Of a stretch of 64,000 bases of DNA, positions 217 through 27,949 are shown one piece after another. A program made the translations under genes and the position numbers. Within the stretch, counting starts at the first letter, position 1; each line of letters opens with the position of its first letter. Origin of the DNA: an uncultured Planctomycetaceae bacterium (lineage in GTDB: Bacteria; Planctomycetota; Phycisphaerae; Sedimentisphaerales; UBA12454); NCBI GenBank assembly GCA_964492875.1, contig CAZBLD010000007.1, positions 21,949 through 85,948 on the forward strand, given 5' to 3'. Under the pieces are notes generated by a model. The model made no database searches, had not been told where the DNA came from, and saw only the letters and a list, made by a program, of their open reading frames with translations.

Positions 217-247
217 AAAGGCCGGTTATTTCGGTCGGCCTTTTTGT
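217..247 (+). terminator. Rho-independent terminator-like hairpin
   Basis: Stem AAAGGCCG (217-224) pairs with CGGCCTTT (236-243), followed by a T-run to 245. Confidence 0.45.
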
Positions 248-377
248 CTTTATTGGAGGGACTACTTGTCAGAGGATGCGATGTTCTTTTCCTTCCATCT
301 CACAAAGTATTAAATTCATTCTTGCTTGGCATTTTTTTGTGTGTATAATATTTGAAAATATCTGTCGGGGACCGGAA

Positions 378-872: not shown

Positions 873-876
873 GTTC

Positions 877-1599: not shown

Positions 1600-1663
1600 A
1601 ACTTGTATTATATCATTTTTTACTATTGATATTGAATAAAATCGTTTGTTAAAATAGGCCCCT

Positions 1664-3100: not shown

Positions 3101-3219
3101 ATCCCGCACCTTCTAAATATTCAGTGTATCACGTATATCTTTTGAAGAGTCGTAAGGATGATAGCTTGTATATTGGATATACCAACGGGAAAATTGAACA
3201 GAAAGAAGGTGCGGGATGA
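3097..3219 (+). pseudogene. 40-codon mini-ORF, relic of the N-terminus of a GIY-YIG (COG2827-like) nuclease
   Basis: The translation is MNPAPSKYSVYHVYLLKSRKDDSLYIGYTNGKIEQKEGAG, with VYLL and LYIGYT matching the GIY and YIG motifs. Its ATG (3097) overlaps the murE TGA (3098-3100) and its TGA (3217-3219) overlaps the murF ATG (3216). Confidence 0.5.
3102..3216. repeat. Perfect 13-bp inverted repeat bracketing the mini-ORF
   Basis: TCCCGCACCTTCT (3102-3114) is the exact reverse complement of AGAAGGTGCGGGA (3204-3216). The right arm covers the murF ribosome-binding region. Confidence 0.85.
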
Positions 3220-4643
3220 AGCCTTTAAGCATAAGGAAACTCGCTGAAGTTATAAAAGCTCAAACCGTCTCCGGCAGCACAGAAATAGTAAGCAGTGTAA
3301 GTATAGACTCTCGTATAGTTCGCCAAGGTAGCGTATTTTTTGCGGTTAAGGGGGCAAATCACGACGGCCACGATTTTGTCAATCAGGCCTTTGAAAACGG
3401 CGCAGCCTGTGCGGTTGTGCAGAAGAAAATTGCTGTTACGACCGATTCGCCGCGGTGCGACCGCCTCGCAACAGGCAAGCTTGTCCTGCTTGTCAGCGAT
3501 ACGATAAAGGCTCTTGGCGAACTGGCAAAGTATGTGCGAAGTATCTCAGCCTGGAAGGTTATCGCAGTTACCGGCTCGGTGGGCAAGACTACGACAAAGG
3601 ATATGCTTCATCATGTTTTAAGCAGTAAGTTTAGATGTTTTGCCGCCCAGAAAAGCTACAATAACAATATCGGCGTGCCTTTGACGGTTTTCGATGCTCC
3701 GGATGATTGTGAATTTATTATAGCAGAGCTCGGCAGCAATCATCCCGGCGAGATTGAATATCTTTCCCGTATAATTGCTCCTGACATAGCTTTGATAACC
3801 ACGATATGCCCCGCACATCTGGAGGGTTTTGGCTCGATTGAAGGTATAATAAAGGAAAAGGTTTCCATCACGGCAGGTCTGAAGCAGGATGGAAAACTTT
3901 TTATCAACGGCGATAAAAAAGAGCTTGTTGATTATTGCAAAGAGAGTCGTTTGGATTTTACCACTTTCGGCACAGCGAAAACCTGCGACATACAGGTAAA
4001 GGATATTGAGTTTTTTGGCGATAAAAGTAAGTTTGTTATTGATGACGTTTTGGTGGAGCTTCCGCTTGCCGGCAGAGCTAACGTGGAGAATGCGGCAGCG
4101 GTCTGGGCGATGTGTAAATATCTTGGCATTCCAGCGGCTCAGCTTGCCCGCTTGATTGCTGACATAAAACCTGTCGGTATGAGGCTGGAGATTATCGAGT
4201 GCCGTCAGGCATCCCTTAGCGGACTTGGTTCGGTAACGGTTATTAACGACTGTTACAATGCAAATCCCGGCTCGATGGAAAATGCCCTTCAGACCCTTTC
4301 TCTGCTGGCGGAGCAGAAGAAGAAAAGACCTGTTTTTATTTTTGGCCGGATGGGTGAACTTGGCGCCCAAAGCGAAAGGCTGCACGCCGAGCTGGGCCAA
4401 AGAATTGCTCATTACAAAATCCCGCTTGTTCTGACGACGAAAGGCGATAGTGCCGTGGCTGCCCAAATGGCGGATAAAAGCGCTGATTTTCATATCTGTG
4501 TGAGGATTTTTGAAAATGTGCGCGAGCTTACCGCTAACCTGCACAAATTTATTGAACCTGACGATATAATATTAGTCAAGGCTTCTCGCAGTGAAAGCTT
4601 TGAAATAATTGTGGATAAACTGAAAGGACTTTTTACCAGATAG
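3216..4643 (+). CDS. murF: UDP-N-acetylmuramoyl-tripeptide--D-alanyl-D-alanine ligase
   Basis: Mur ligase P-loop GSVGKTTTKD, NDCYNANP motif, synteny murE-murF-mraY. Confidence 0.9.
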   Translation: MKPLSIRKLAEVIKAQTVSGSTEIVSSVSIDSRIVRQGSVFFAVKGANHDGHDFVNQAFENGAACAVVQKKIAVTTDSPRCDRLATGKLVLLVSDTIKALGELAKYVRSISAWKVIAVTGSVGKTTTKDMLHHVLSSKFRCFAAQKSYNNNIGVPLTVFDAPDDCEFIIAELGSNHPGEIEYLSRIIAPDIALITTICPAHLEGFGSIEGIIKEKVSITAGLKQDGKLFINGDKKELVDYCKESRLDFTTFGTAKTCDIQVKDIEFFGDKSKFVIDDVLVELPLAGRANVENAAAVWAMCKYLGIPAAQLARLIADIKPVGMRLEIIECRQASLSGLGSVTVINDCYNANPGSMENALQTLSLLAEQKKKRPVFIFGRMGELGAQSERLHAELGQRIAHYKIPLVLTTKGDSAVAAQMADKSADFHICVRIFENVRELTANLHKFIEPDDIILVKASRSESFEIIVDKLKGLFTR

Positions 4644-4696
4644 TAAAAAAAATTCCACAGTTTTGGGTTTTTACTTTTAAGTTTTAAGTTTCTTTT

Positions 4697-5836
4697 ATGC
4701 TGTATCATCTGTTTTCATTTTTGCAGGATTTTGTAACTCGCTCGCTGGGTTTTTACGCCTGGCAGGAGGTGATGTTCCGTTGCATAATGGCGGCGCTCAC
4801 AAGTCTTTTTGTGGCATGGCTTTCCGGCCCGAAGATAATTCGCTGGCTGATGCGCAAAAAAATAGGCGACCGGCCGGAATTTCATCACGAGACGCTTAAT
4901 GAGCTTAACAAAGAAAAGGCCAATACCCCGACTATGGGTGGTCTGATAATTCTTGCTGCGGTGCTGGTAGGTACTCTGCTATGGGCAAAGCTGAACAATT
5001 CGTTTATCCAAAAAGCGATTATTTTGATATTATGGTTTGGCGGCATAGGAGCGGTTGACGACTGGCTCAAGCTTACAAGTAAAATTCGCCATCGCAGCCG
5101 CAACGGCTTAAAGCCGTGGGAGAAGCTGGCGTTTCAGTTTGGCGGTGCGGTGCTGATAGCGACGTTCCTGTATTTTGATATTAAAAATGTGCCGGATGCA
5201 ACGAGGTTTTGGCTGCCTTTTTACAAGTATGGCATACCCATCACCGGCTGGTTGTTTGTATTGATTGCGATACTTTATATTTCAGCGACGAGCAATGCGG
5301 TCAATTTAACTGATGGTATGGATGGCCTGGCAGCTGGTTGTGTTGCGATAGCAAGTCTGACTCTGGCTATTCTCTGTTATGTTGCTTCTGAGTCGATGAC
5401 GAGGACCTCAACGATGACATGGGCCGGCTATCTGCTTTTGCCGCATATACCGCAGTCCGGCGAGCTTAGTATATTTTTCTCGTCTATTCTCGGCGCTTCG
5501 CTGGGGTTTTTATGGTTTAACTGTCATCCGGCGCAAACGTTTATGGGGGATATTGGCTCGCTTCCGCTGGGCGCTGCGATGGGTTATGGCGCTCTGGTTA
5601 CGAGGAATGAAATCCTGCTTTTGGTAATTGGCGGCGTATTTATGGTTGAGCTCTTCAGTGTGGTTTTGCAAATACTGTATTTCCGCTATACCGGCGGAAA
5701 GAGACTATTCCGCTGTGCGCCGATTCATCATCATTTTCATCTTGCCGGCTGGTCTGAGCCGCAGGTGGTGGTAAGATTCTGGCTTTTGGCCGCCGCCTTT
5801 GCAACATTAGCCCTCGCAACTCTAAAAATCCGCTGA
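4697..5836 (+). CDS. mraY: Phospho-N-acetylmuramoyl-pentapeptide transferase
   Basis: Polytopic membrane protein with NAVNLTDGMDGLA and FMGDIGSLPLG motifs and HHHFHL near the C-terminus. Confidence 0.93.
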   Translation: MLYHLFSFLQDFVTRSLGFYAWQEVMFRCIMAALTSLFVAWLSGPKIIRWLMRKKIGDRPEFHHETLNELNKEKANTPTMGGLIILAAVLVGTLLWAKLNNSFIQKAIILILWFGGIGAVDDWLKLTSKIRHRSRNGLKPWEKLAFQFGGAVLIATFLYFDIKNVPDATRFWLPFYKYGIPITGWLFVLIAILYISATSNAVNLTDGMDGLAAGCVAIASLTLAILCYVASESMTRTSTMTWAGYLLLPHIPQSGELSIFFSSILGASLGFLWFNCHPAQTFMGDIGSLPLGAAMGYGALVTRNEILLLVIGGVFMVELFSVVLQILYFRYTGGKRLFRCAPIHHHFHLAGWSEPQVVVRFWLLAAAFATLALATLKIR

Positions 5837-5997
5837 CAGGTTAGCTGCCGATTTGATATCCTGTAGGTACGGATTATGTTTGACAGCGTTTAACAGTCTG
5901 TCTTTTATTTCCTGTCTTGTCATACTCGACAGTTTAAGTCGGCAATTGAAATTTGTCAATATCTATCATTTTCTACCTCAAAAACACACTTTTCTAC

Positions 5998-6080: not shown

Positions 6081-7010
6081 GTGAATCATCCCCGTGTGCT
6101 TATCAGGAACCAGAGTAACGAGATGTTGGAGTGCGAATCTCTGGAAAAGTTCGCCGCTCCCTTTGCCGATGTCTTAATCGTATGCGGTCAGGGGGTGTAT
6201 GAAGATGGGATATACTATGGGGAATTTCATGACAGAGATGTCTGCTTCGAGCATTCTCTCAAGTTTCCAGAAATAGCAGGTCGCTTTCGGTATAACATCA
6301 TAGTTTTGTCAGGCGGCTTCACGCAGGAACGCGCTCCATGGCTTTCAGAGGCTGAAAGCTTCTTGAATATTATGAGGGATGCGGGTGTCGAGATTCCCCC
6401 CGTACCGCTCATTTTGGATGAATATGCACTTGATAGCGCTGAGAACATCCTATTAGGACTTATGACGACCAGGCTCGCGTTGTCGAAAACCCCTATTCGG
6501 CGAGTAGGCATTTGGGTGGCTTGGAAGTTCAAGAAATGGAGGTTCAATAGGAATGCGGAGGCTCTTGGTATCGTTGAGCAAACCTATGTTCATGGCTTTG
6601 CTCACGTCTCGGATACTAACATTCAGGTGCCGATAGACGACGCGAAGCAGAGGGATTATAACGAATATATGCAAGACACTGTAGAACATTATCTGCTGCG
6701 AGCAAGCGACAAAGAGGATGAACGACGAAAGAAATGGCAGAATAACCGAAGCGACAAAGACCGAGACCAGGTCTTTAGTCCTTTTATGCGATTTCCGAAC
6801 GACCCGAAGCGGTGGTTTCGCTCCCTCGACCGAAGTGGAGAGCCTCAAATGGTCTGTGATACAAGACCTTTTTCATTCTACAAAAATCGGTTAGACCTTT
6901 TTGCACCTTTCGTGCAGACATGGCAAAGCTTACACTCAATTGAGAGAGGAGTTAAGTTAGAGGACTCGGGTTTAAAAGATGCGTTTAAAGAGGAAGTAAT
7001 GAAGCTGTGA
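6081..7010 (+). CDS. DUF218/YdcF-like (ElyC/SanA superfamily) protein
   Basis: VLIVCGQG...IIVLSGGFT...SEAESF...LDEYALDSAENIL pattern is typical of DUF218. GTG 6081 is preceded by GGAGGG. ATG 6123 is an alternative start. The track start at 5853 lies upstream of the promoter. Confidence 0.55.
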   Translation: MNHPRVLIRNQSNEMLECESLEKFAAPFADVLIVCGQGVYEDGIYYGEFHDRDVCFEHSLKFPEIAGRFRYNIIVLSGGFTQERAPWLSEAESFLNIMRDAGVEIPPVPLILDEYALDSAENILLGLMTTRLALSKTPIRRVGIWVAWKFKKWRFNRNAEALGIVEQTYVHGFAHVSDTNIQVPIDDAKQRDYNEYMQDTVEHYLLRASDKEDERRKKWQNNRSDKDRDQVFSPFMRFPNDPKRWFRSLDRSGEPQMVCDTRPFSFYKNRLDLFAPFVQTWQSLHSIERGVKLEDSGLKDAFKEEVMKL

Positions 7011-7100
7011 TGGGATGCCGAACATTGGCATCCAGACTCGTAGTTGGCATTGCTGTCCCAGCGGCATACAACGCATTATACATGACGAGTATCTATTTTA

Positions 7101-8411
<1,311 letters not shown>

Positions 8412-8490
8412 TTATTCTGGCTTTTGGGATGAAAAAGATAACGTCTGTATGGCATTAAGTCAAGACCTAAAGAGAAATGTCTTTTTCTGC

Positions 8491-9042
8491 TCAAAATTTG
8501 CTGATCAAAGGTGCTACTTGGAGCCAAATGTTATCAGTTTGCTTTTGAATAAAAGCAACCAAATTAAGTGGAACTGCATTTTGCGTGAAAGCCCCTTGGA
8601 GATTATATGCCATCCGTTCTAATGGGCTATTCTTGTAACCAAACTGTAATAGACCAATACCGTATGCAAAAAGAAAATTATCTACTCCTAATCTTTTCCA
8701 CTGTACTACATGAACCAATTCATGAAAATAAAGACTCTCCGTTTGATAAAGATGATGAACAAAGAATGTGTCCATATATGTTATCCCATCAAGTGGCATT
8801 CGCTCCATTTCTGATAGTTCTGGGAGACCCATTTGCCCAATTGGAGGAAATGGCACCTTAGAAACTGTCACTACCTTTGCTTGTTCTAATAAGTCAGAAG
8901 GAAAATGTTTTGCTATATTGGAAAAACCAAGGCTATTTACATTGACAGTTTCATTTTTATGCTTTTCTAATAACTCTTCAATCCATTTTCGGATCGTTGG
9001 TAGAGCAACATGAAATTTGTTGATTGTTTCTGCTACATTCAC
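8491..9042 (-). CDS. Hypothetical protein with HExxH motif (putative zinc metallopeptidase-like)
   Basis: 183-aa ORF with HELVHVVQW. Sampled line is AT-rich (33% G+C at 8701-8760, versus 50% at 8041-8100 in eno). Confidence 0.45.
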   Translation of the reverse strand: MNVAETINKFHVALPTIRKWIEELLEKHKNETVNVNSLGFSNIAKHFPSDLLEQAKVVTVSKVPFPPIGQMGLPELSEMERMPLDGITYMDTFFVHHLYQTESLYFHELVHVVQWKRLGVDNFLFAYGIGLLQFGYKNSPLERMAYNLQGAFTQNAVPLNLVAFIQKQTDNIWLQVAPLISKF

Positions 9043-9191
9043 AATTTATTCCAACAATGATTATGCAGTTTTATACGTCTCTGGCATACTGCATAAAACG
9101 CTAAACACACACATTAGAATACATTCCATCTTCCCCAAAAATCAAGATGAAAAATGTTATAAGTTGTCGTAACTCAGTTATCTATTCCGTC

Positions 9192-11171
9192 TTATTTTCG
9201 CGGCAGCCAGACTCTCATAGTTCCTGCACCGCGATTCGACCAGGCATAATAAGGAATTGCGGTCAGCTTTAATACTGTCTGACTGTTATTGGCTGGAACA
9301 TCACCTGTAATTATATTGACCCCATTGAGCAAATCAGTTCGTTTTTCCAGCTTTAATGCGGCATTGTCGGGCAATGTGAGCTCATCCAATCGGTTATTGT
9401 TATCTATGCCTTCGACACAATAAACAATAGGACCATATTCGAGAGCCGCCATATTCAGGTCGTCCTTTACTTTTTCGTTAGCTATTACATGGCGTATAAC
9501 CATAGGAAAGTTAACTTTAACCCTGTCTCCGACCTTCCATTTTCGAGTAATTGCTGCATAACCAAGACGTGTGCGATATTTTATTTCCCGGCCGTTTATT
9601 GTAATAACGACTTTGTCGCTTATTTTATCCGTATAAATATATAAGTCACTTGGGATAACCTGGTTTTGTGCCCAGCCGGGTATGCGGAGTTTCAGAGTGA
9701 ATTGCCCAGCTTTTTCAGGATTAATTACTATACTGACGTCTCCCTGCCAGGGATAATCCGTTTGTTGTTCAATAGTTACCTGCCTGTTTTCTAAATTCAC
9801 TTTTGCCTTATTGGATGCATAAAGGTTGACATACAACGTGTCTTTTTGTGCAGCATAAATCAAGCCCGGCAGTGAAGGAATAAAGCGAATGAGATTTGTC
9901 GGGCAGCATGAGCAGTCAAACCAGCTCTGGCGTGTTCCTGTCCCCTGATTGAAATTAAATTTACCATCGGCTTCTAAGGGGTTTACGTAAAAGAAGTTTT
10001 TTCCATCGAGTGATATACCCGCAATCAAACCATTGTATAAGGTGCGTTCAATAATATCATAATATTTTGCATCGCCCGAGAGCAGAAACAAACGATGATT
10101 CCAATATACATCGCCTATAGATGCACAGGTTTCGCTGTATGAAGTCAGGTTGCCAAGTTCATAATCTCTGCCTAATGATTCGCCTTCGTGTTTGGCTCCG
10201 ATACCGCCGGTAATATACATCTTGCGCTCTACCAGATTGTTCCAGATATTTTTCACCGCTTTAAGATACGCCGAATTGTTATAGATTGCCGCTATATCGG
10301 TCATACCAGCATACATATACACTGCCCGCACAGCGTGGCCGACAATTTCGGTTTGCTTTGTAACCGGTATATGGTCTTGGCTGTATTCGCCGTAGAGATG
10401 ATGCGTGTTTGGGTCTCCACGCCAATCGAGGAAACATTTGGCCAGTTGAAGGTATTTTTCATTACCGGTAATGCGGTAAAGTTTTACAAGTCCCGTTTCG
10501 ACAATTTGATGTCCCGGCGGAATTGTAAGTTTGCCCGGGCCGAAACTACGAACCAGTAAGTCAGCGTTTTTGATTGCGATATCAAGAAAATTGCGTTTGC
10601 CGGTGGCGATATAATGAGCCGCGGCGGCTTCGAACAGATGGCCGCTGTTATATAGTTCATGATTGCTTGCTTCGCCTGTCCATCGTTTGCCTGTTTTTTG
10701 TGCCCAGGGAGCAGGAGGATTATTGGGGTCGATAGTAAACCATGTCGTAATATAGCCATCAGGCTCCTGACCGATTTTGATAATGGCAATAACCGAATCA
10801 AGGTAAGCATCCAGTTCTTTGTTGGGAGCGATTATCAATGAGTTGGATGCTCCTTCGATAATTTTATACACATCTGAATCGTCAAAAGGCATCTTTCCGC
10901 GTACTTTACCTTTTCTTTTACCTCCGGCAATAAGGAAGTTCTCCATTCGGCCTTCTTTCTCGCATTTATCAAAGCCAAAAGCAATAGTCGTGTTTTGCAC
11001 CGTCCTGATTTTTGGCAGCCAGAAGCTGTCGGTTATCTCTACATTGTTAGGCCCAATCATAGAAATGGGATAATCTTTGTAATTTTTATGCTGCCCATAA
11101 CTTTGAACAGAAATTAAACATAAAAGCATAAACGAACAAAAAGCGTGTTTTTTCATTTTTTTGCCTTTCAT
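9192..11171 (-). CDS. Glycoside hydrolase family 127 (DUF1680, beta-L-arabinofuranosidase-like), secreted
   Basis: N-terminal signal peptide. HELYNSGHLFEAAAAHYIATGKRNFLD and LYRITGNEKYLQLAKCFLDWRG are typical GH127 blocks. Confidence 0.8.
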   Translation of the reverse strand: MKGKKMKKHAFCSFMLLCLISVQSYGQHKNYKDYPISMIGPNNVEITDSFWLPKIRTVQNTTIAFGFDKCEKEGRMENFLIAGGKRKGKVRGKMPFDDSDVYKIIEGASNSLIIAPNKELDAYLDSVIAIIKIGQEPDGYITTWFTIDPNNPPAPWAQKTGKRWTGEASNHELYNSGHLFEAAAAHYIATGKRNFLDIAIKNADLLVRSFGPGKLTIPPGHQIVETGLVKLYRITGNEKYLQLAKCFLDWRGDPNTHHLYGEYSQDHIPVTKQTEIVGHAVRAVYMYAGMTDIAAIYNNSAYLKAVKNIWNNLVERKMYITGGIGAKHEGESLGRDYELGNLTSYSETCASIGDVYWNHRLFLLSGDAKYYDIIERTLYNGLIAGISLDGKNFFYVNPLEADGKFNFNQGTGTRQSWFDCSCCPTNLIRFIPSLPGLIYAAQKDTLYVNLYASNKAKVNLENRQVTIEQQTDYPWQGDVSIVINPEKAGQFTLKLRIPGWAQNQVIPSDLYIYTDKISDKVVITINGREIKYRTRLGYAAITRKWKVGDRVKVNFPMVIRHVIANEKVKDDLNMAALEYGPIVYCVEGIDNNNRLDELTLPDNAALKLEKRTDLLNGVNIITGDVPANNSQTVLKLTAIPYYAWSNRGAGTMRVWLPRK

Positions 11172-11237
11172 ATTGAGAAACCTTTATATAGCTTCCGTCC
11201 AACCCAAAATCAAGATGAAAATTGGTCTAAAAAATCC

Positions 11238-11266
11238 GTGAAATCTGTGTAATCCGCGGTTAAAAT
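11238..11266 (+). promoter_or_regulatory. Promoter-like module GTGAAA-17-TAAAAT inside a dispersed CCGTGAAATC...GGTTAA repeat
   Basis: GTGAAA at 11238-11243, 17-nt spacer, TAAAAT at 11261-11266. The psd GTG start lies 6 nt downstream (11273). Confidence 0.4.
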
Positions 11267-11272
11267 AAACTT

Positions 11273-11956
11273 GTGAGAATTCCAATAACAAAATATGGTT
11301 TGCCGGAGGTTGTGATTTATCCCGGCCTATGTGTCCTTGCGATGGTGATAGCTGTTTTTGCTGTACCGGCTGGTGTATTACTTTGTGTTTTTGAGGCTGT
11401 TTTGGCAATTGTTTTGGTCTGGCTTTTATCTTTTTTCCGTGACCCTAAGCGCAATATCCCGGCGGGGGATAATTTAATTCTTTCGCCTGCTGATGGAACG
11501 GTAACTGATATTGAAGAGGTTGACGAATCTGACTTTATCGGCGGCAGGGTGGTCAGAATTGGAATTTTTTTGAGTATATTTGATGTCCATATAAACCGGA
11601 CACCTTGCGGCGTCAGGATTGAAAAAATCACTTATCGCAGGGGGAAGTTTAAAAATGCCTTAAATCCTGCCAGCGGCGGAGTTAATGAAAGCAATGACAT
11701 AGCGATGACTCGGATTGTCGAGCCGTCTGATAAACTTCTTGTCCGTCAGATAGCTGGTGCCATCGCCCGCAGGATTGTCTGTGATGCAGCGGAAGGTCAG
11801 GAATTTTCTGGCGGAGCGGTTTTGGGTATGATAAAATTTGGTTCCAGGACTGAGCTTTACCTGCTGGCCGGAAGTTCAGCAAAAATAATCGCTAAAAAAG
11901 GCGACAAGGTAAAAGCCGGCATTACGGTGCTTGCAAAATATGACAGAGCTGGTTAG
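11273..11956 (+). CDS. psd: Phosphatidylserine decarboxylase proenzyme
   Basis: N-terminal TM segments, FLSIFDVHINRTP, and a C-terminal FGSRTELYL self-cleavage-type motif. Confidence 0.85.
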   Translation: MRIPITKYGLPEVVIYPGLCVLAMVIAVFAVPAGVLLCVFEAVLAIVLVWLLSFFRDPKRNIPAGDNLILSPADGTVTDIEEVDESDFIGGRVVRIGIFLSIFDVHINRTPCGVRIEKITYRRGKFKNALNPASGGVNESNDIAMTRIVEPSDKLLVRQIAGAIARRIVCDAAEGQEFSGGAVLGMIKFGSRTELYLLAGSSAKIIAKKGDKVKAGITVLAKYDRAG

Positions 11957-16871: not shown

Positions 16872-16924
16872 AAATCTTTGTGTCTTTGTCCTTAGGACTC
16901 CTAACGGAGTGTCTTCGTGGCTAA
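16872..16924 (+). repeat. Dispersed element AAATCTTTGTGTCTTTGTCCTTAGGACTCCTAACGGAGTG-CTT-GTGGCTAA, copy 1
   Basis: Near-identical copy at 17764-17807. Its core recurs in reverse orientation at 23792-23821 and 32163-32190. Short versions occur at 43199-43230 and 46607-46672. Confidence 0.85.
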
Positions 16925-17047
16925 TTTTCGTACGCTTGCAGGCAAAAGGCAAGACAATTCTATCCGCCGTAGCCTTGGCGAAGGAGGATTTTACGCAATA
17001 TGATAGTTTGTTTTGCGCAAGCCTGTCCTGAGATACTAATTTTGAAT

Positions 17048-17632
17048 TTATTCAAAATTAAGCGCTGCGAACCTCCCTCTGTACTTCTTTGCCGCTTCAT
17101 CGTATGCCCTTGCTGCCTCTTCCTCGCTGTCGAAATAGCCTAAATGTTTTGGTTTTAAGTCGGTATGGATATACGCACGCCATTTCCCGCGTTTTTCATC
17201 CCTGCAGACTCCTCTGTATTTTGACCCGCTTGGCCTTCCTCTTTTTGTGCAGTTTAGCGCGTTTTGTCTATGGTCAGCGAATTGCAGATTAGCTTTTCTG
17301 TTATCAAGGCCGTTGCGGTTTTTATGGTCAACGATAGTTCCCGCCGTTGCCTGCATTATTTCCCTGTGCATATATATAATCTTCCATTTCCCGTCTTCCA
17401 GCAGCATCCGCCACGCATAACAGGTATTTTTGCATTCTTTAAGCAGCCACTCGCACCGGCAGAGTTGCGCATAATCTTCAGGGTCAACTATTGCGTACTG
17501 TCCGCCGACAAGTCTGATTTTACGAAACGCAAATCCATATTGTTTCCGCCGGTACCAAAGCAGTATCGCCGCGCCGATGGTTTCTAACCAATTCGGAACA
17601 GCAATAGGAATATGAAGATGATGTATTTTCAT
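17048..17632 (-). CDS. HNH endonuclease fused to an AP2 DNA-binding domain
   Basis: HNH_3-like IVDHKNRNGLDNRKANLQFADHRQN, followed by the AP2 block SKYRGVCRDEKRGKWRAYI...LGYFDSEEEAARAYDEAAKKYRG. Confidence 0.8.
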   Translation of the reverse strand: MKIHHLHIPIAVPNWLETIGAAILLWYRRKQYGFAFRKIRLVGGQYAIVDPEDYAQLCRCEWLLKECKNTCYAWRMLLEDGKWKIIYMHREIMQATAGTIVDHKNRNGLDNRKANLQFADHRQNALNCTKRGRPSGSKYRGVCRDEKRGKWRAYIHTDLKPKHLGYFDSEEEAARAYDEAAKKYRGRFAALNFE

Positions 17633-17701
17633 CGGAATTTAAAAATTATTTAGGTATTTTTAATTAGTTTTGAACTTGTCTGCCGATATCGTTTTTGACA
17701 T

Positions 17702-17757
17702 TTGAATTTTGGTTATTCGAATTTGTTTAGGATTTAGAAATTAGGATTTAGGATTTT
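17702..17757 (+). repeat. TTGAA...TTTAGGATTTAG low-complexity element, copy 1
   Basis: Related copies at 17952-18015 and 25433-25466, and a reverse-complement-like copy at about 23430-23465. Confidence 0.7.
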
Positions 17758-17763
17758 TCTTTC

Positions 17764-17807
17764 TGTCTTTGTCCTTAGGACTCCTAACGGAGTGCCTTTG
17801 TGGCTAA
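17764..17807 (+). repeat. Dispersed GTCCTTAGGACTCCTAACGGAG element, copy 2
   Basis: Direct repeat of 16881-16924, in the same orientation, on the other side of the HNH-AP2 gene. Confidence 0.85.
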
Positions 17808-17951
17808 ATTTATTCACTTTTCACTTAATAATACCGGTATTTTACCATATTTACAACAAAAAGTCAAGGAAAATCCGCTTTTTTTACTTAAAAAAGTGGT
17901 TTTTCTTTCACCGTTTCACGCTTGTCCTGAACAATGTTGAAGGGGCGGGTT

Positions 17952-18015
17952 TTGAACTTTTGGTAATTGGTATTTAGGATTTGTTTAGAATTTAGGATTT
18001 AGTGCTTAGGATTTT
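17952..18015 (+). repeat. TTGAA...TTTAGGATTTAG low-complexity element, copy 2
   Basis: Aligns by eye with 17702-17757. Confidence 0.7.
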
Positions 18016-18062
18016 CTTCTCTCTACTCTCGATTTTCGATTATCTCGCCCTTGGCGCGGTTT

Positions 18063-18242: not shown

Positions 18243-19337
18243 TTAATCTATATCTGCGTTAACAAGTTTTTCCGGCAAACCAAGATGTTCTTTAATCTCT
18301 TTCTGTCTCAGACCGTCTACAAAATCACCTATTTTACCAAAGTCAAGTTGCCACATTTCTCGTACACCTGTACTGTACTTGTCGGCAAAAAACCCCTGTA
18401 CTGTCGGGTACTCGATATGTATATCATCGTGGATTGAACGGAGTAAGTAGCTTCCAATTGTCTGCATTTTGCTTCCGGTAGGTGCAAGAATTATACGATG
18501 AGTACCTGAAAATTTCCAATATAAACTAGTAAGAAGTTCATAAGTTTCATTATAGTAAAGGGTGCTAGTTACTTTGATGGGATTGTTATCATCTTCGATA
18601 GTCCATTCTCGGCGCAAAAACTGATGAACATAGGCTGTAGCCTCTTCTCGCCATTTTAATTCTCCTCGTGGTGGACGGCCATTGATAAGTATGAAACGTG
18701 ATGGCTTGATAACATTAACTAAAGCCTGGCATAAAGCTTCATTGAAAGAGTCAAAGGCTATTAGCAATGTTGCCTGATTTTGCATTCGAATACTTGAGAG
18801 TCTGGAAACATGCAGCACATCGTAAACACCGGTATGTATGAAAGATGTAGGTAAATGTTGCTCTTCTTTTGATTTTGCTGTCTCAAACTGGGCTTGGCTT
18901 GGCGCGTATTCACAAGCTTCAGCATACACTATACGTAATGGCAAATTCAATTCGCGTACTACGTCAAGGATAATCATAATTGCCAGTCTTGACATGCCGG
19001 ATATATCAAGGCATACCGCCTTGGCTTGAGAATTAATCAGAATATCCTTAAAACAAATATCAAAGTCAAAAGGTAAATGCAAATTGTATTCCACAGGCAC
19101 AACCTTGCAACCTTTCTTATTTAGTAAAGACATAATCTCTTCAAATCTATTTTCTGGTTTATAGGGCAAGTAGTTCAGAAGTACCGCAATATTGTTGGTT
19201 GAGCTGGAAAATTCGAGAATTTCAGAAAACTTGCATGCGCGTTCCTCAAATCCTCCTGCTGCCACAAATAATTCATCATTATGAAGCACAAGTTTATCGA
19301 TAGATGTGAGTTTAGGTATGATCATGGCTACTTTCAT
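18243..19337 (-). CDS. Hypothetical protein, third gene of the MTase/kinase-ATPase operon, with possible Rossmann/CARF-like motifs
   Basis: Long AT-rich ORF whose start (ATG 19337 or 19325, TTG 19340) overlaps the stop of the upstream gene (19312). Motifs AAGGFEERA, LDISGMSRL and APTGSKMQ. No family recognised. Confidence 0.7.
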   Translation of the reverse strand: MKVAMIIPKLTSIDKLVLHNDELFVAAGGFEERACKFSEILEFSSSTNNIAVLLNYLPYKPENRFEEIMSLLNKKGCKVVPVEYNLHLPFDFDICFKDILINSQAKAVCLDISGMSRLAIMIILDVVRELNLPLRIVYAEACEYAPSQAQFETAKSKEEQHLPTSFIHTGVYDVLHVSRLSSIRMQNQATLLIAFDSFNEALCQALVNVIKPSRFILINGRPPRGELKWREEATAYVHQFLRREWTIEDDNNPIKVTSTLYYNETYELLTSLYWKFSGTHRIILAPTGSKMQTIGSYLLRSIHDDIHIEYPTVQGFFADKYSTGVREMWQLDFGKIGDFVDGLRQKEIKEHLGLPEKLVNADID

Positions 19338-21840
19338 CAAACAATCTCATTTGTTTAGTGTTAAACCGCTCTCTATCTTTTTTCCACTTTTGGGCAAAAT
19401 CTGCTGGGTTTAAAAGTAAATCCCTAAAATCTACTGCTTTCATAAAAATGCTATCAATTTTGGAAAATGTCAATGTACAAAACGGAATAAGTAATCGCCG
19501 TAAATATAGTCTGGGAATTATAGCCCCTCTAATACTTTTTCCTCTGTCATCCCTCAGGAACACTCCATAACGTACAAGATCTTCATATATTTCCCTACAG
19601 ACACCTTCCAAGGAAAACTTATCTACTATTTCTATTCGAAAAGCCTGTTTAGGTTCATTCTGTCGATCTTTTCTGCCGCTATTCAGTTTTCGTAAATCAT
19701 ATAAACTAACTTCCTTAAAAGCTTCAGCAATCTTAACCAAATGTTCACCCCATGAAACTATATGGCGAGGAAGGGGAGTTTTACCATCTCTTGCTGTTCT
19801 GGCACAGGCTTTAAGAAAATGCAGAAATTCCCCTCCTGCACGCCTGAATTCCTTGTTTTGTATATCTGGTTGTATTGGAAGATTCAAAGGTTGTTTATCT
19901 GGAATTTGTTCCAAGAGATTCTGAGCAAGTTTAACCATTGATCTTGTGTCTCCAGACCACATGCTCACAAAAACTTCTCGACCATAATAAAGAACCTGAG
20001 GTTTTGGTTTTTGTATAGGTTGCAAGTCATCATTCTCCGGCCCTACCTCTTTCCGAATTCCTCTTGCAAGTTCTGCCCAGGATTTATCAAATCTGCCAAG
20101 CACCTCAATGAGATTTTTGCCTTGAAACTTGTCTTCTCTTGCGAGACGACGACAAAACACATCATCAAGAAATGTTTCGCGTTTTTCGTCTGGCAAATCG
20201 ATTGTTACAGAACCTAAATCTGTAAGTTCAAAGTCGTGAGGCTCATCGAGGACCTTTTTAGTATAATCTTCGCGATATAAAGTTGAAGGTGATTCTGTGG
20301 AAATTTTGAAGAAAAAACAATCTGATCTTTGAAAAATAACCGAATTGAGAATTTTCTGAAGTGATTTGCCAACCTTGGGAAGAGAATAGTCATCAAGAAA
20401 AAAATATAATGGTCTATCGCCTATCCAAGGTACTATTTGCTGCAATTTTGGAACAAAACGTTTAAGCCAATCATTTTGCGCCATTTCCGAAAGACAAGAG
20501 ATGGGCTCTTTTGCATTTCGTACTCTGTCTTTAGCAGTCTCTACTAACGAGGCTGCAACCTGCATTTCAAGCCTGGGGCCTGGATATAAAGTCTTAGGAT
20601 CAATTTTCGTGATAATCAAATTAAATAACTGACGGTTTGATTCATCAAGTACAGTTTGTTGTCCATCCGCACCTTTTTCTCTGGCAGTTGATGCAATCCG
20701 TATAATCTCTGACAACAGCGAAAGATGAAAAAACTGAATTATACGCATAGCAAGGTTTTTATCTGGCGACTTCTCTTGGTCAAACAGAAACGCATCAGCA
20801 ATATCGTTCATATTAAGATATATGCCAACCAACTCTCCTGCCGCACCATCATCTACAGGACCAACCTCAAGAGTAAGAAGCTTTGAAAGACGTCTGAATA
20901 CCATTGTTTTGCCACAACCTCTTGTTCCAGTCAAGACCGTGATATTTCGACTGACGATATCTTCGTAGCCGGGAAAACTTGAAACAAAAAGTTCTTTCCA
21001 TTCTTTCCATCTATTCCCTAATTGTTCGCCTACCAAATAGTCACCAAATCTGGAATGACCCATTTGTGTAATTTGTGGCATGCTTGTTCGTTGACGTATA
21101 CGAATCAATTCCCCTACTATATTTTCAACGACATTTTTTTCATCCCCTCTTTCCAATGGCGATTGCTCTCTGAGACTCTTTATGGCAGATCCGCCGCAAA
21201 TTTCATCATAAAAAAATCTATCACCTTGCGTTAATTGTTCTCGAGTAATTGACTGAAGCATCAATGTGGTTATCAGGCCAATTTGCTCTATATCTTTTTT
21301 AGGTTGTAATATAGCCCCAGTATCACCCATCCCAAAATCTGTTATCATAACCTCGTATGCACGAGGACCTCCCATCTCAGGTTTTCTCAGAATAATATTT
21401 CCCGGATGTAAGTCTCCATGCTGTAAGTTCTTTTTTTGCAGACAATCTCGACGAAAAAATAATAAGTTTTCCAATATGTGTTGAACGTCGCTGATGGTTA
21501 ACTTGCGATTTATAACATGTTCTTTAAGTGTTTGGCCTTCGATGAAATCAAAGACCATCACAGCATAATCTTTATACCAAAAAAGTCCATGAAATCTTAC
21601 GGTGTTTGGTTGCTGTTCAAGTTGATGCGCTTTGAGAGCTTCTTGTTCCCAACCATGTTTTAATTTGTTTTGAGATATAAATTTTAAAGCTCGCTCACGC
21701 CCGTATTGATTTTTAGCTTTAAAAACATGCGCTCTTTTTCCACTTCCAATATAACTTATTATCTCGTATTCGTATTCTTTGTCCTTGTTAACTGTATTAC
21801 CTACTAAATCTTTTAATTGGTCTGGTAGAGAAAGAGTCAT
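19312..21840 (-). CDS. Fusion protein: Ser/Thr-type protein kinase core (aa about 24-200) plus P-loop NTPase (aa about 295-520) plus uncharacterised C-terminal region
   Basis: Kinase: G-loop IGSGKRAHVF, ALK (K53), HGDLHPGNIIL (D143), ITDFG (168-170). NTPase: Walker A GTRGCGKT (305-312), Walker B-like LYFFLDD (478-484). Confidence 0.85.
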   Translation of the reverse strand: MTLSLPDQLKDLVGNTVNKDKEYEYEIISYIGSGKRAHVFKAKNQYGRERALKFISQNKLKHGWEQEALKAHQLEQQPNTVRFHGLFWYKDYAVMVFDFIEGQTLKEHVINRKLTISDVQHILENLLFFRRDCLQKKNLQHGDLHPGNIILRKPEMGGPRAYEVMITDFGMGDTGAILQPKKDIEQIGLITTLMLQSITREQLTQGDRFFYDEICGGSAIKSLREQSPLERGDEKNVVENIVGELIRIRQRTSMPQITQMGHSRFGDYLVGEQLGNRWKEWKELFVSSFPGYEDIVSRNITVLTGTRGCGKTMVFRRLSKLLTLEVGPVDDGAAGELVGIYLNMNDIADAFLFDQEKSPDKNLAMRIIQFFHLSLLSEIIRIASTAREKGADGQQTVLDESNRQLFNLIITKIDPKTLYPGPRLEMQVAASLVETAKDRVRNAKEPISCLSEMAQNDWLKRFVPKLQQIVPWIGDRPLYFFLDDYSLPKVGKSLQKILNSVIFQRSDCFFFKISTESPSTLYREDYTKKVLDEPHDFELTDLGSVTIDLPDEKRETFLDDVFCRRLAREDKFQGKNLIEVLGRFDKSWAELARGIRKEVGPENDDLQPIQKPKPQVLYYGREVFVSMWSGDTRSMVKLAQNLLEQIPDKQPLNLPIQPDIQNKEFRRAGGEFLHFLKACARTARDGKTPLPRHIVSWGEHLVKIAEAFKEVSLYDLRKLNSGRKDRQNEPKQAFRIEIVDKFSLEGVCREIYEDLVRYGVFLRDDRGKSIRGAIIPRLYLRRLLIPFCTLTFSKIDSIFMKAVDFRDLLLNPADFAQKWKKDRERFNTKQMRLFDESSHDHT

Positions 21841-21844
21841 GACA

Positions 21845-22957
21845 TTAACTCTTCTTTCGTAGCACTATAATAGTTTCTTCACGAGTTGAATGGCAGTTGA
21901 CTCGTGCGCGGCGAATGTCAGGAATAGCATTTTTGCATATAGCAGTGGGTTTTAAATAACAATCTTTGCGTGAAGTAATTCTCAATATTTCTTCCGGTAA
22001 ACGATGATACTTACCATTTCGACGTACTGCTCCCAACACAAGAATACACACACCATTCCGCACTAAAAGCTTTGACCATATATCCATCAATGCTTCCATC
22101 ATATTTAGAAATTGTGTCTTGTGTGGCGAAAGCACAGGTTCCAATATTGTGTGATCCTTAATTCCTAAGAACCATAGTCTCAAACGATTATCACGAGCAT
22201 AAGAAAGCGAATTCATATATGGCGGACTTGTTATAATAGCTGAAACCTTCTGACAAACCAACTTTGAGTCTGGCTTCATTGCGTCCGACTGTACAACATT
22301 CCTAATCAATTGCCGATCCACCTCAGACGTTCTTTTGTAAGCACGGCGTACTTTAGCAAGCAATCGTGGATACACCGCTCTATAAGCATATAGTTCAGGG
22401 TATTTTGTACGTGGATAAAGCTTATCTTTCAAATATGGAACTGTATGGGAGGATGGATATGACAAAAAACCTGGTCTCCAATGATGAAGTATTCCGAGCA
22501 GACAGCTGAGCAAAAAATATTGACGGTGACGTAGCATAACATTTCTAATTGCAAGAGTATCCCGAAGAGTCTCCGGTTGGAAAAAATTGCGTACCCACTC
22601 TGGAATTTTTCTGAGATCAATCGTTTTACGTTCTTTAGTTGCTTCTTGCCAACATTCATTGAGTCTATTCTCGGCATCTTTAAAATTTTTAGGAGGATTC
22701 ATTTTGGCTTTTGAAAGCACATAAGCATAAGGACTGAGATCTCCTGCAAACACGTGTCTCTTGGTAAGCCATCCTTCTAATGCTATCGTTCCTGCTCCCG
22801 AGAAGGGATCGTATATGGTATCCCCCGGCTCAGTAAACTGTGTGATTAAACTTCTGGCCATTGAGGATTTCATCCTACCAATGTATGGAGACAGTTGGTG
22901 CCAGCTACATTCTGAATTAAGAGTACCTTTTCTCCAATCAATCCGTATTTTATCCAT
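21845..22957 (-). CDS. DNA methyltransferase (N6-adenine or N4-cytosine type)
   Basis: SAM-binding DPFSGAGT (aa 50-57) and catalytic TSPPY (aa 243-247). Its stop lies 4 nt from the next gene's ATG. Confidence 0.85.
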   Translation of the reverse strand: MDKIRIDWRKGTLNSECSWHQLSPYIGRMKSSMARSLITQFTEPGDTIYDPFSGAGTIALEGWLTKRHVFAGDLSPYAYVLSKAKMNPPKNFKDAENRLNECWQEATKERKTIDLRKIPEWVRNFFQPETLRDTLAIRNVMLRHRQYFLLSCLLGILHHWRPGFLSYPSSHTVPYLKDKLYPRTKYPELYAYRAVYPRLLAKVRRAYKRTSEVDRQLIRNVVQSDAMKPDSKLVCQKVSAIITSPPYMNSLSYARDNRLRLWFLGIKDHTILEPVLSPHKTQFLNMMEALMDIWSKLLVRNGVCILVLGAVRRNGKYHRLPEEILRITSRKDCYLKPTAICKNAIPDIRRARVNCHSTREETIIVLRKKS

Positions 22958-23004
22958 TTCAGCATCTTATTTTTGAATATACTTTGGTTCAGACGTAGTG
23001 AGAA

Positions 23005-23032
23005 ATTATACTATTCGTAAGTTAACAGGCAA
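23005..23032 (-). promoter_or_regulatory. Candidate sigma70-type promoter of the three-gene operon
   Basis: On the minus strand, TTGCCT (23032-23027), 16-nt spacer, TATAAT (23010-23005), about 45 nt upstream of the ATG at 22957. Confidence 0.35.
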
Positions 23033-23478
23033 GCCATTTCCCAGTGAAGCCGGTTCATAAAATCTTCATTCTTCAATTTTGCGACAGTAGTTCTCCGCTT
23101 CGCAAAAACGCGCAAGCACAAGTTGCGCAAATTCATCGAAAACTTGCCAAAAACTCAAAAAAACCCCTCATTTTTTTTAATTTCCGTGTAATCTGTGTAA
23201 TCTGTGGTTAATTTCCACCCCATTTTTACCCCCTTTTTTGAAGTTTACCCGCCACCGGCGGTCGGTTAGCCCTGCCAACGAAGTTTACCCTCGCGCAGTG
23301 CCTGCCCTCGAGTAGTCGGGGGCGGGGGGCAGGGTTTTCATTGCGACCCCTTAGGCCGTAGCAATCCGTCGTAAGGCGTCCCGAGCGAAGTAATGTCACC
23401 CCTGCGCAGGCAGGGGCGAGGGTTCTATTTAAATTTCTAATCTGCAATCTCAAATCCCGAATTTCTCCCTCACCTTGA

Positions 23479-23492
23479 TTGATAATTATCAA
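23479..23492. promoter_or_regulatory. Perfect 14-bp palindrome TTGATAATTATCAA (operator-like), copy 1
   Basis: Self-complementary. An identical copy lies at 23696-23709 within a duplicated block. Confidence 0.3.
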
Positions 23493-23695
23493 GTATCGAT
23501 TTTCAGCCCCAAAAACTCATAAAAACAGTGTAAATCTGCGAAATCTGCGGTTAAAAACAGCAACTTTAACTTGTCCGCCTATGGCGGACGGCAACGCCGT
23601 CTCCGCCCCCCGCCGCTTCTCAATTTTTAACTTTTCACTTTTGGCTTTGAGCTTTTAGCTTTAACTTTTAAACTCTTGTCTCTCCCTCACCTTGA

Positions 23696-23709
23696 TTGAT
23701 AATTATCAA
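23696..23709. promoter_or_regulatory. Perfect 14-bp palindrome TTGATAATTATCAA (operator-like), copy 2
   Basis: Identical to 23479-23492. Confidence 0.3.
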
Positions 23710-24082
23710 CTACCGATTTTCAGCACAAAAACTTGTAAAAACCTGTAAAAAGTCGTCAAAAAATTGTAATTTGTGTCAATTCGTGTTCATTCTCCGTAAG
23801 GAGTCCCAAGGACGTGGTTAATTAAAATCAATTTAATCTGCGTAATCTGTGATTAAAAGTACCCTCATTTTTAGCGTAATCCGCTGGGGGATGCCTGACG
23901 GCATTTTTAAAACTCTTGTCCGTTCGACTTGTCCGCTCGTAGCCTTGGCGGAGACGGAAGCCTTAGCGACCTGTCCTCCGTAGTCCATCTTGGTGGACGA
24001 AGGATGGAAGACGGATGCCCGCTTTTGACGAATTTTTTATCTCCTCAAATTACCTAAAAATCGTTTATCCCGCACCTACTTG

Positions 24083-24137
24083 CCCCGTTAGATGCGTTAG
24101 TTAGCTGCTTGGGGACACTTTAGCTATCTAACCGGGG
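24083..24137. repeat. CCCCG-TAGAT...ATCTA-CGGGG hairpin-family element
   Basis: CCCCGTTAGAT (24083-24093) pairs with ATCTAACCGGGG (24126-24137). Same family as 33069-33103 and 53039-53115. Confidence 0.6.
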
Positions 24138-24405
24138 TTTGCTATTCAATCGTTTACTTGGTGCGGGGTCAATCCCGCACCAAACTTATTATTCTTTACT
24201 CGGTGCGGGGTTCATAACTCCTTATTTTTCATTGCCGGTTTTTACCTGTTCTACTATTCACTGTTCACTATTCACTGTCCCCCTTTTTCTACTTCCCCTG
24301 ATTTGCCTTTCAGTCTTTTATTTCGTATATATTTATATGGAGTCGATTAAAGAAGGCCGAGGGGCCTATAAGTATTTAATTTGGGGGGGTTTAAGGAGTT
24401 TTTTT

Positions 24406-25409: not shown

Positions 25410-25432
25410 AGCGGCATCAAGGCAGACTGTTT

Positions 25433-25466
25433 TGAAGATTCAGATTTAGGATTTCGGATTTTTTCT
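25433..25466 (+). repeat. TTGAA...TTTAGGATTT element, copy 3
   Basis: GTTTTGAAGATTCAGATTTAGGATTTCGGATTTTTTC resembles 17702-17757 and 17952-18015. Confidence 0.55.
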
Positions 25467-25494
25467 TTTTTATTGGATATTACTGTAGGTTCAA

Positions 25495-27873: not shown

Positions 27874-27949
27874 CGGGGTGTAGCTCAGCTTGGATTAGAG
27901 CGCTTGGTTCGGGACCAAGAGGCCGCTGGTTCAAATCCAGTCACCCCGA
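27874..27949 (+). tRNA. tRNA-Pro (anticodon CGG)
   Basis: Manual cloverleaf. Acceptor arm CGGGGTG pairs with CACCCCG (C1:G72, as in bacterial tRNA-Pro). D arm GCTC/GAGC. Anticodon stem CTTGG/CCAAG with loop TTCGGGA. T arm GCTGG-TTCAAAT-CCAGT. Discriminator A. No encoded CCA. Confidence 0.9.

Follow-up and report, generated by a model that had tools for sequence, protein, structure and literature searches.

A methyltransferase, a kinase-ATPase fusion and a tandem CARF-like protein form a conserved three-gene cassette with a probable role in nuclease-free defence

The window, which is the whole 64,000-nucleotide stretch of contig CAZBLD010000007.1 analysed here, comes from an uncultured Planctomycetaceae bacterium (assembly GCA_964492875.1) and contains a compact cassette of three genes that abut or overlap on one strand, in the order methyltransferase, kinase-ATPase and CARF-like protein (Table 1). 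Gene 1 encodes an S-adenosylmethionine (SAM)-dependent amino-methyltransferase and is separated by 4 nt from gene 2, which encodes a fusion of a kinase, an ORC/Cdc6-like ATPase and a winged helix. Gene 2 overlaps gene 3, which encodes two CARF-like Rossmann domains in tandem, by 26 nt. A plus-strand reading of the gene 2 interval was rejected because the translation there is full of stops, which places gene 2 on the minus strand. The ATG of gene 3 at position 19337 matches the start of an identical 364-residue database protein (P0121).

Gene 2 encodes a single polypeptide with two catalytic modules. Every motif residue number in the preliminary description of this DNA, which was made from the sequence without database searches, is exact in the 842-residue translation: IGSGKRAHVF at residues 31–40, ALK at 51–53, HGDLHPGNIIL at 141–151 and ITDFG at 166–170 in the kinase part, and GTRGCGKT at 305–312 and LYFFLDD at 478–484 in the P-loop part. 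The kinase part matches the Pfam family Pkinase (PF00069) over residues 25–172 at 53.7 bits (E = 2.5e-14; threshold 31.7), while the P-loop part matches the Pfam family ORC-CDC6-like (PF24389) over residues 283–583 at 96.1 bits (E = 2.9e-27; threshold 27); given these profile scores, a chance origin of the motifs need not be considered. A database search found 248 relatives of gene 2 (E ≤ 0.001), and nearly all of the best 120 of them are about 830 residues long and contain both Pfam domains. In an alignment of 114 homologues, the most distant about 33% identical, the kinase residues G34, E67, H141-G-D143-L-H145, N148 and D168-F-G170 and the ATPase residues G305, R307, G308-C-G-K311-T312, F481 and D483-D484 do not change, indicating that both active sites are under selection. 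The Pfam matches and the invariant motifs thus bear out the earlier proposal that one chain joins a kinase core to a P-loop NTPase, and both modules are apparently active.

The N-terminal module is, by its sequence and its structural model, a Hanks-type protein-kinase domain with a minimal activation segment. It contains the full Hanks catalytic set, namely G32-x-G34, K53, the αC glutamate E67, D143, N148 and D168. We predicted the structure of gene 2 with AlphaFold from a 70-sequence alignment (mean predicted local distance difference test (pLDDT) score 83, predicted TM-score (pTM) 0.66). A Foldseek search of the Protein Data Bank (PDB) with this model returned the bilobal Ser/Thr kinases CaMKII, S. 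aureus PknB, Mnk1, DAPK and ULK with probability 1.0. Consistent with the structural matches, the best PDB sequence matches of the module are the Ser/Thr kinases PknB (4eqm, E = 3.6e-15), CaMKII and ULK1. The Foldseek alignments with complete kinase domains extend over 243–290 columns, with TM(target) of 0.5–0.69, arguing that the kinase domain does not end early, as had been supposed; only the Pfam match stops short. Specifically, its C-lobe reaches to about residue 253 in the model, and most of the presumed linker of about 100 residues is in fact this C-lobe, modelled as helices at residues 183–253.

The accompanying observation that the kinase lacks an APE motif holds: neither an APE motif nor a P+1 region was found in the domain, and only about ten residues lie between the DFG motif and the next helix. 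Some true kinases lack APE as well, so that its absence limits what can be said of the substrate, not the membership in the fold. Six residues past the DFG aspartate, position 174 holds Ser in 75 homologues and Thr in the other 39, of 114 in all. Since it is always Ser or Thr, residue 174 is a candidate autophosphorylation site in the activation segment of 7–10 residues.

The C-terminal module of gene 2 is, as judged from profile and motif matches, an ORC/Cdc6-like AAA+-type ATPase with an arginine inside the P-loop. The PF24389 match at residues 283–583 covers profile positions 18–317, and residues 581–842, when scanned alone, match profile positions 407–567 of 571. Because these C-terminal 260 residues match the same profile, the region from residue 283 to about residue 800 probably forms a single ATPase-lid-winged-helix module. 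The "about 350 further residues" that had been set aside as unassignable are accordingly the lid and winged helix of this module, by both the profile match and the model. In the model, the succession of secondary-structure elements, the lid and the winged helix at the C-terminus fit AAA+ proteins of the ORC/Cdc6 clade. The most conserved block of gene 2, residues 751–780 (mean conservation 0.81), lies on the wing of the winged helix, where R757, D764, R766, G767, K768, S769, R771, G772 and R777 are conserved and the basic residues R757, R766, K768, R771, R777 and R782 are invariant; the winged helix may bind nucleic acid. No additional domains were found in the longer gene 2 homologues (897–919 residues).

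Although no Pfam domain was matched in gene 3, the PADLOC CARF6--CARF_CARF_CARF models match it with E = 1.6e-15. The structural model of gene 3 (pLDDT 89, pTM 0.90) contains two Rossmann-like domains in tandem, for which Foldseek found local matches with probability 1.0 to Csm6 (8jbb) and Csa3 (6wxq), in their CARF domains, and with probability 0.97 to the ring nuclease Sso2081 (7ygh). Two loops are of the CARF type, LDISGMSR (D111, S113 and S116) and APTGSK at residues 285–290, with conserved P286-T-G-S-K290. Furthermore, members of the gene 3 family match Csa3_N (E = 9.9e-6) and HFX_2341_N (E = 4.4e-5). A profile search with the CARF-like family found 1039 representative proteins at E ≤ 0.001, 202 of them below 1e-30. 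Some relatives of gene 3 carry added C-terminal domains, namely HisKA/HATPase_c (P0266), a calcineurin-like phosphoesterase (P0308), TIR (P0280) and an extra 380-residue domain (P0289), and in 4 of 4 cases a gene 2 homologue lies directly upstream. This exchange of domains suggests that gene 3 behaves as a modular sensor.

Gene 1 carries methyltransferase motif I as DPFSGAGT (residues 50–57) and motif IV as SPPY (residues 244–247), and matches the Pfam families UPF0020 (E = 7.5e-9) and N6_N4_Mtase (E = 1.7e-8) as well as the PADLOC model MTase_II (E = 1.6e-21). Among 29 homologues, a His-rich insert at residues 155–171 is conserved and the C-terminal 100 residues or so (residues 262–370) are variable. 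The sequence GILHHxRPGFLSxPxSHxxPYL, at residues 155–179 (window positions 22420–22495), is near-invariant in the same homologues.

Table 1. Genes, domains and motifs of the cassette, in window coordinates (position 1 is the first letter of the window) and in residues of the encoded protein
Feature	Residues	Window positions	Strand	Basis
Gene 1, SAM-dependent amino-methyltransferase	370 in total	21845..22957	minus	Pfam, PADLOC
Promoter-like site, 10/12 consensus matches, ~50 nt upstream of gene 1		23005..23032	minus	consensus scan
Gene 2, kinase + ORC/Cdc6-like ATPase + winged helix	842 in total	19312..21840	minus	ATG start, profiles, model
Gene 2, kinase domain (N-lobe, catalytic loop, DFG, very short activation segment, compact helical C-lobe)	16–253	21082..21795	minus	Pkinase, AlphaFold, Foldseek
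Gene 2, kinase N-lobe	16–104			AlphaFold
Gene 2, ATP-anchoring lysine (VAIK equivalent)	K53	21682..21684	minus	K in 113/114 homologues
Gene 2, catalytic loop HGDLHPGN (catalytic D143, N148)	141–148	21397..21420	minus	H141, G142, D143, L144, H145, N148 in 114/114
Gene 2, DFG, then G172, T174	168–170	21319..21339	minus	D168, F169, G170 invariant
Gene 2, activation segment, ~10 residues	172–178			model, pLDDT < 50
Gene 2, compact helical C-lobe	183–253			AlphaFold
Gene 2, inter-domain linker, including conserved GDYLxxExLGxRxxEW lead-in to ATPase	254–290	20971..21081	minus	low pLDDT at 256–260
Gene 2, ATPase core (beta1-Walker A, beta2, helical insert, beta3/Walker B, beta4, beta5)	291–541	20218..20970	minus	PF24389, model
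Gene 2, Walker A GTRGCGKT, invariant R307 within P-loop, after strand 301–304	305–312	20905..20928	minus	alignment, model
Gene 2, strand 2 of ATPase	338–343			AlphaFold
Gene 2, helical insert of ATPase, ~125 residues	344–469			AlphaFold
Gene 2, Walker B LYFFLDD on strand 478–483	478–484	20389..20409	minus	alignment, model
Gene 2, two later ATPase strands	509–514, 537–540			AlphaFold
Gene 2, helical lid region (helices 542–718)	542–730	19651..20217	minus	model; part of PF24389 match
Gene 2, winged-helix-like C-terminal domain (pattern ~735–800)	731–810	19411..19650	minus	model, PF24389 positions 407–567
Gene 3, tandem CARF-like Rossmann domains (~20–140 and ~190–335)	364 in total	18243..19337	minus	PADLOC, model

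The three genes are strictly linked. We compared the flanks of about 30 related loci, counting each locus where the flank in question exists. A methyltransferase homologue lies upstream of gene 2 on the same strand in every flanked locus (E = 1e-77 to 1e-173), and is adjacent to it in all except one (L017), while the gene next downstream, again on the same strand, is a CARF-like homologue at each flanked locus (E = 1e-46 to 1e-162). The genes that surround the cassette differ from locus to locus. In the exceptional locus, from a Chthoniobacter metagenome-assembled genome (MAG), an insert of about 1.3 kb (positions 4617–5974 of that locus) separates the methyltransferase from the gene 2 homologue and contains many stops in the frame tried.

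Additional evidence for joint action of genes 2 and 3 comes from a natural fusion. The PADLOC model PDLC01925, CARF6--CARF_STK_AAA (1187 positions), aligns through positions 125–691 with residues 93–674 of gene 2 (E = 7e-21, 71.7 bits), and its positions 873–1179 match a CARF6 domain. The model scores higher, at 87.8 bits (E = 1e-25), on an end-to-end concatenation of the gene 2 and gene 3 products, with two aligned stretches. Taken together, these alignments identify PDLC01925 as gene 2 and gene 3 naturally fused in their cassette order, which by the Rosetta-stone argument is evidence that their products act jointly.

A pattern scan that covered a single representative genome for each of 185,579 species found 32 loci with the gene 2 family. 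The closest belong to Planctomycetota (55–62% identity); further loci occur in Nitrospirota, Bacteroidota, Verrucomicrobiota, Gemmatimonadota, Undibacterium (Betaproteobacteria), Clostridia, Acidobacteriota and Aminicenantes, and archaeal loci in Thermoplasmatota, Methanoperedens and Methanophagales. Among 72,556 plasmids, a single one, pBq66S1MBc of Bradyrhizobium quebecense, carries the cassette, and no relatives were found on IMG/VR viral contigs or GenBank phages. The cassette is, to judge from this patchy spread, rare and horizontally mobile.

The fusion of kinase and ATPase is the rule in the family, as about 113 of the 120 closest listed relatives of a kinase-less ATPase (L043) carry the kinase. 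This 645-residue ORC-CDC6-like ATPase, one of the four proteins encoded directly upstream of the domain-extended gene 3 relatives, is 37% identical to residues 266–823 of gene 2, and the CARF6-like gene that follows it (both within locus positions 301–4427) has an extra 380-residue C-terminal domain without a Pfam match. On the B. quebecense plasmid (NZ_CP088025.1, L044, positions 6739–11754), a kinase of 246 residues and an ATPase of 652 residues are encoded by separate open reading frames (ORFs), which overlap by 4 nt in different frames with the break inside the linker; the separation is due either to a true split or to a frameshift. We considered the kinase as a swappable effector and rejected the idea, as its loss in L043 and its splitting in L044 are sporadic. 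In a planctomycete MAG (JBGLNR010000001.1, L010/L011), about 3.7 Mb separates the two halves of the gene 2 homologue on a single scaffold of 5.97 Mb, the N-terminal half next to the methyltransferase and the C-terminal half next to the CARF-like gene, reflecting either a rearrangement or insertion that disrupted the gene, or a mis-assembly.

In the window, the cassette sits between recJ and priA in an island of low GC content. The three genes have 38–40% GC, compared with 45% for the window, and a dip from 17.2 to 23.2 kb falls to 35–42%, compared with 44–52% in the flanks. No CRISPR or tandem repeat arrays were found within the 64-kb window. Elsewhere, some loci adjoin known defence genes. 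In a planctomycete MAG, PglZ (E = 0) and BrxL (E = 3.9e-291) of a type 1 bacteriophage exclusion (BREX) system lie immediately upstream of the cassette (L006, positions 178–4589). On the B. quebecense plasmid, an Mrr-type endonuclease lies two genes away. Neighbours in other loci match caspase-like, PDC-S41 and mad2/mad3/mad8 models, the mad matches being probably to type I restriction-modification (RM)-like genes.

Several further elements lie at or near the borders of the island. A 194-residue ORF with HNH_3 and AP2 domains (17048–17632, minus strand), at the edge of the island beside the cassette, resembles a homing endonuclease and lies between two direct repeats of 54 nt with 93% identity (16875–16928 and 17758–17811); the region 16875–17811 looks like a small mobile insertion. 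Degenerate TTTAGGATTTAGGATTT-type repeats (68–83% identity) at 17733–18028 and 25431–25468 flank the cassette region at 18.0–25.4 kb, and could have been left over from insertion borders or be a coincidence of low complexity. A tRNA-Pro gene (CGG) at 27874–27949 lies just past priA, about 5 kb from the island. Upstream of gene 1, 1.2 kb (22958–24138) is poor in ORFs, contains a 71-nt repeat twice (23464–23534 and 23681–23751, 82% identity) and a terminator-like hairpin on the minus strand (23109–23129), and yielded no tRNA or Rfam family. The promoter-like site in this region is weak evidence, because the scan gave 22 such sites compared with 15.6 expected.

We propose that the cassette is a methylation-associated, nuclease-free system against phages or plasmids, in which the kinase-ATPase serves as a two-module signalling enzyme, a reading that we consider probable, if by no means secure. 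In this model, the methyltransferase would mark self nucleic acid, presumably DNA. The ATPase and its winged helix would bind nucleic acid, and their ATP-dependent assembly would report unmarked or foreign DNA, thereby switching on the fused kinase. The kinase would then phosphorylate itself, with S/T174 as the candidate site, its partners, or host or phage proteins, and so stop replication or growth. The CARF-like protein would bind the kinase-ATPase and gate or relay the response upon binding a nucleotide-type ligand. A more specific version is speculative and, in our estimate, unlikely as a whole: the cassette would represent a new class of immunity independent of CRISPR and of nucleases, in which the methyltransferase defines self, the ATPase with its winged helix detects unmarked DNA of the invader, phosphorylation by the kinase is the output, and the tandem CARF protein gates the response by reading a nucleotide signal. 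This signal would arise without a dedicated cyclase, perhaps from the kinase or the ATPase, or as a nucleotide derived from the phage.

Several observations weigh against the proposed defence role or against parts of the model. The region of gene 1 between motifs I and IV is strongly conserved in the 29 homologues rather than variable, whereas in an alpha-class methyltransferase the variable target-recognition domain is expected between these motifs. Because N6_N4_Mtase and UPF0020, the latter an RNA methyltransferase family, score alike, a DNA or an RNA target cannot be assigned to gene 1 from sequence. The ORC/Cdc6 assignment of the ATPase comes from a Pfam profile and the order of secondary-structure elements; Foldseek searches of PDB and BFVD with the full-length model gave kinases only, and a profile search of PDB found no solved relative of the ATPase part. 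Neither a nuclease or classical effector nor a nucleotide cyclase was recognised in the cassette. Recognised defence genes adjoin only a minority of loci, the neighbours being mostly housekeeping genes. Finally, no experiment on any member of the gene 2 family was found in the searchable literature, and RefSeq labels the three ORFs other than the methyltransferase on the B. quebecense plasmid as "hypothetical protein".

Other explanations of the kinase module and of the cassette have to be weighed against this model. The N-terminal domain could be a small-molecule or nucleotide kinase, or an ATP-driven switch of the Rio, Bud32 or UbiB type, and might even make or modify the CARF ligand, for which the cassette contains no cyclase. 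The HGDLHPGN loop does resemble those of the ABC1/UbiB and Bud32/Rio types, gene 2 matches Pfam ABC1 (E = 4.3e-6) and the NCBIfam models Bud32 (E = 1e-3) and UbiB (E = 1.8e-3), and a few of its homologues also match APH (PF01636). We nevertheless regard a small-molecule kinase, which the preliminary description had raised, as an outside prospect. The short activation segment without APE or P+1 loop agrees with it, but the best matches in sequence and fold are Hanks-type protein kinases, the fold matches span both lobes, the Pkinase score is about twice that of ABC1, and the Ser/Thr at position 174 is placed as an autophosphorylation site would be. Moreover, Haspin, a true protein kinase, has HRDLHWGN in the corresponding loop. 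Membership of gene 2 in a known methylation-associated system, as a divergent PglW of BREX type 2/phage growth limitation (Pgl) or a divergent MAD6 of the methylation-associated defence system (MADS), is refuted for practical purposes. Gene 2 does match both families, PglW in NCBIfam (NF033442, E = 4.7e-6) and PADLOC (E = 5.5e-5) and MAD6 in NCBIfam (NF047741, E = 1.2e-11) and PADLOC (mad6, E = 1.4e-17), and both systems are associated with methylation. However, the curated scores fall far below their cut-offs (24.6 bits against 990 for PglW, 43.9 bits against 460 for MAD6), and the NCBIfam matches are confined to the kinase, from the N-lobe through DFG. The partner genes PglX, PglZ, BrxC, MAD7 and MAD8 are absent from the cassette, both in the window and in the roughly 30 related loci, and detection of MADS requires MAD6, MAD7 and MAD8 together (bioRxiv 10.1101/2023.03.30.534895). 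Kinship with BREX type 2/Pgl, with which the preliminary description had compared the fusion, therefore fails on both the cut-off and the partner genes.

The behaviour of the cassette as a whole could also be explained without a primary role in defence. It could be a selfish addiction module or a module of epigenetic regulation, in which the methyltransferase protects from, or tunes, a growth-arresting kinase-ATPase, the element thereby merely persisting once it has been transferred. Its patchy, transferred distribution and low GC content, its usual occurrence as a lone three-gene unit among housekeeping genes, and the homing-endonuclease-like gene that adjoins it in the window are in keeping with such a module, as is the title of Hoskisson et al. 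2015, which, as cited in PMC12839542, calls Pgl toxin/antitoxin-like. On the other hand, addiction and defence are compatible for RM-like systems, fusions of gene 3 relatives to TIR and metallophosphoesterase domains are characteristic of immune effectors, some loci adjoin BREX, Mrr or RM genes, and the searches of phages and viral contigs returned no relatives; we judge a purely selfish or regulatory module improbable. The position between recJ and priA might instead point to a chromosomal housekeeping regulator, in which an ORC/Cdc6-like DNA binder, a CcrM-like methyltransferase and a kinase would control replication or the cell cycle; in archaea, ATPases of the ORC/Cdc6 type that carry winged helices initiate replication. 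With 32 loci among 185,579 species representatives and 1 of 72,556 plasmids, the gene 2 family is rare, and the cassette is scattered over unrelated phyla with atypical GC content and different flanking genes at each locus; such a regulator is hardly credible.

If the defence role is correct, one unit links epigenetic self-marking, as in RM, BREX and MADS, with sensing by an ORC/Cdc6- or STAND-like ATPase and with CARF sensing outside CRISPR, and its output is a protein kinase rather than a nuclease. The cassette would then offer a tractable model for how kinase-based immunity of the Pgl, MADS and PD-T4-6 kinds is triggered, and for what CARF domains sense without Cas10 or a cyclase. Residues open to mutation are K53, D143, D168, S/T174, R307, K311 and D483/D484 of gene 2 and SPPY at residues 244–247 of gene 1. 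If the defence role is wrong, gene 2 is still a well-conserved signalling ATPase that is annotated merely as "hypothetical" or "protein kinase family".

Compared with known systems, the cassette shares single modules with several of them. PglW and the BREX ATPases (BrxC/PglY and BrxD) are, like the cassette, associated with methylation and lack an obvious dedicated restriction nuclease, and they likewise bring together ORC/Cdc6-like ATPase modules and a kinase of the Hanks type. A STAND/ORC-Cdc6-like domain, described as inactive, has been reported at the C-terminus of PglW (PMC12839542), so that the joining of a kinase to an ORC/Cdc6-like domain has a precedent in a methylation-linked system. 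Unlike gene 2, however, PglW is a protein of 1400–1600 residues with a NERD nuclease, a pseudokinase in addition to a kinase, and several winged helices, and its ORC/Cdc6-like domain is inactive, whereas the ATPase motifs of gene 2 are intact. Among the named kinases in PADLOC, gene 2 matches MAD6 best, which likewise is a kinase from a defence operon based on methylation, but the match covers only residues 18–171, and MAD7 and MAD8, two mandatory members of the eight-gene MADS operon, are missing here. The kinases of the PD-T4-6 type have a related kinase domain (PADLOC E = 4e-13 to 1e-8 on the gene 2 kinase) and provide a precedent for a kinase as immune output, but they stand alone at 300–560 residues, with no ATPase, methyltransferase or CARF partner. 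The CARF sensors of type III CRISPR-Cas (Csm6, Csa3 and Crn1/Sso2081) share with gene 3 the Rossmann-like CARF fold and the loops after the core strands, and the two domains of gene 3 in one chain resemble a CARF dimer; gene 3, in contrast, has no HEPN or nuclease effector, and no CRISPR-cas genes or cyclase are nearby.

The closest relative is an architecture that is already on record. The fusion of kinase and ATPase has a predecessor: large proteins with kinase, AAA+ and CARF domains were reported in 2014, as "a small family", by Makarova, Anantharaman, Grishin, Koonin and Aravind, in which the AAA+ domain has an arginine inside the P-loop and for which a role of CARF in a kinase-mediated signalling pathway was proposed (PMC4012209); a PADLOC model exists, and gene 2 has more than 200 homologues. 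R307, invariant in G-T-R-G-C-G-K-T, corresponds to the P-loop arginine of that family. Because the CARF part is a separate, overlapping gene and joining the two products raises the PDLC01925 score, the cassette can be regarded as a split version of the kinase-AAA+-CARF protein. The PADLOC CARF6 model names presumably derive from a later CARF classification. The 2014 family and PDLC01925 have kinase, ATPase and CARF-like modules in the same order as the cassette and the same G-x-R-G-x-G-K-T P-loop, although the similarity of PDLC01925 is modest (72–88 bits) and the modules are divided here over two overlapping genes. The 2014 family has an N-terminal Zn ribbon, whereas gene 2 has no cysteines in residues 1–30, and its winged helix follows the CARF domain, whereas that of the cassette precedes the CARF-like part. 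The kinase-CARF links of the CoCoNuT paper concern TerY-P triads and are separate from the cassette. No description of a split, methyltransferase-linked cassette was found in the open literature, a scope outside which the 2020 CARF classification paper lies. The architecture itself has thus been known computationally since 2014, and the cassette adds a member in split-gene form, to which, in contrast to the 2014 description, a dedicated methyltransferase gene is always attached.

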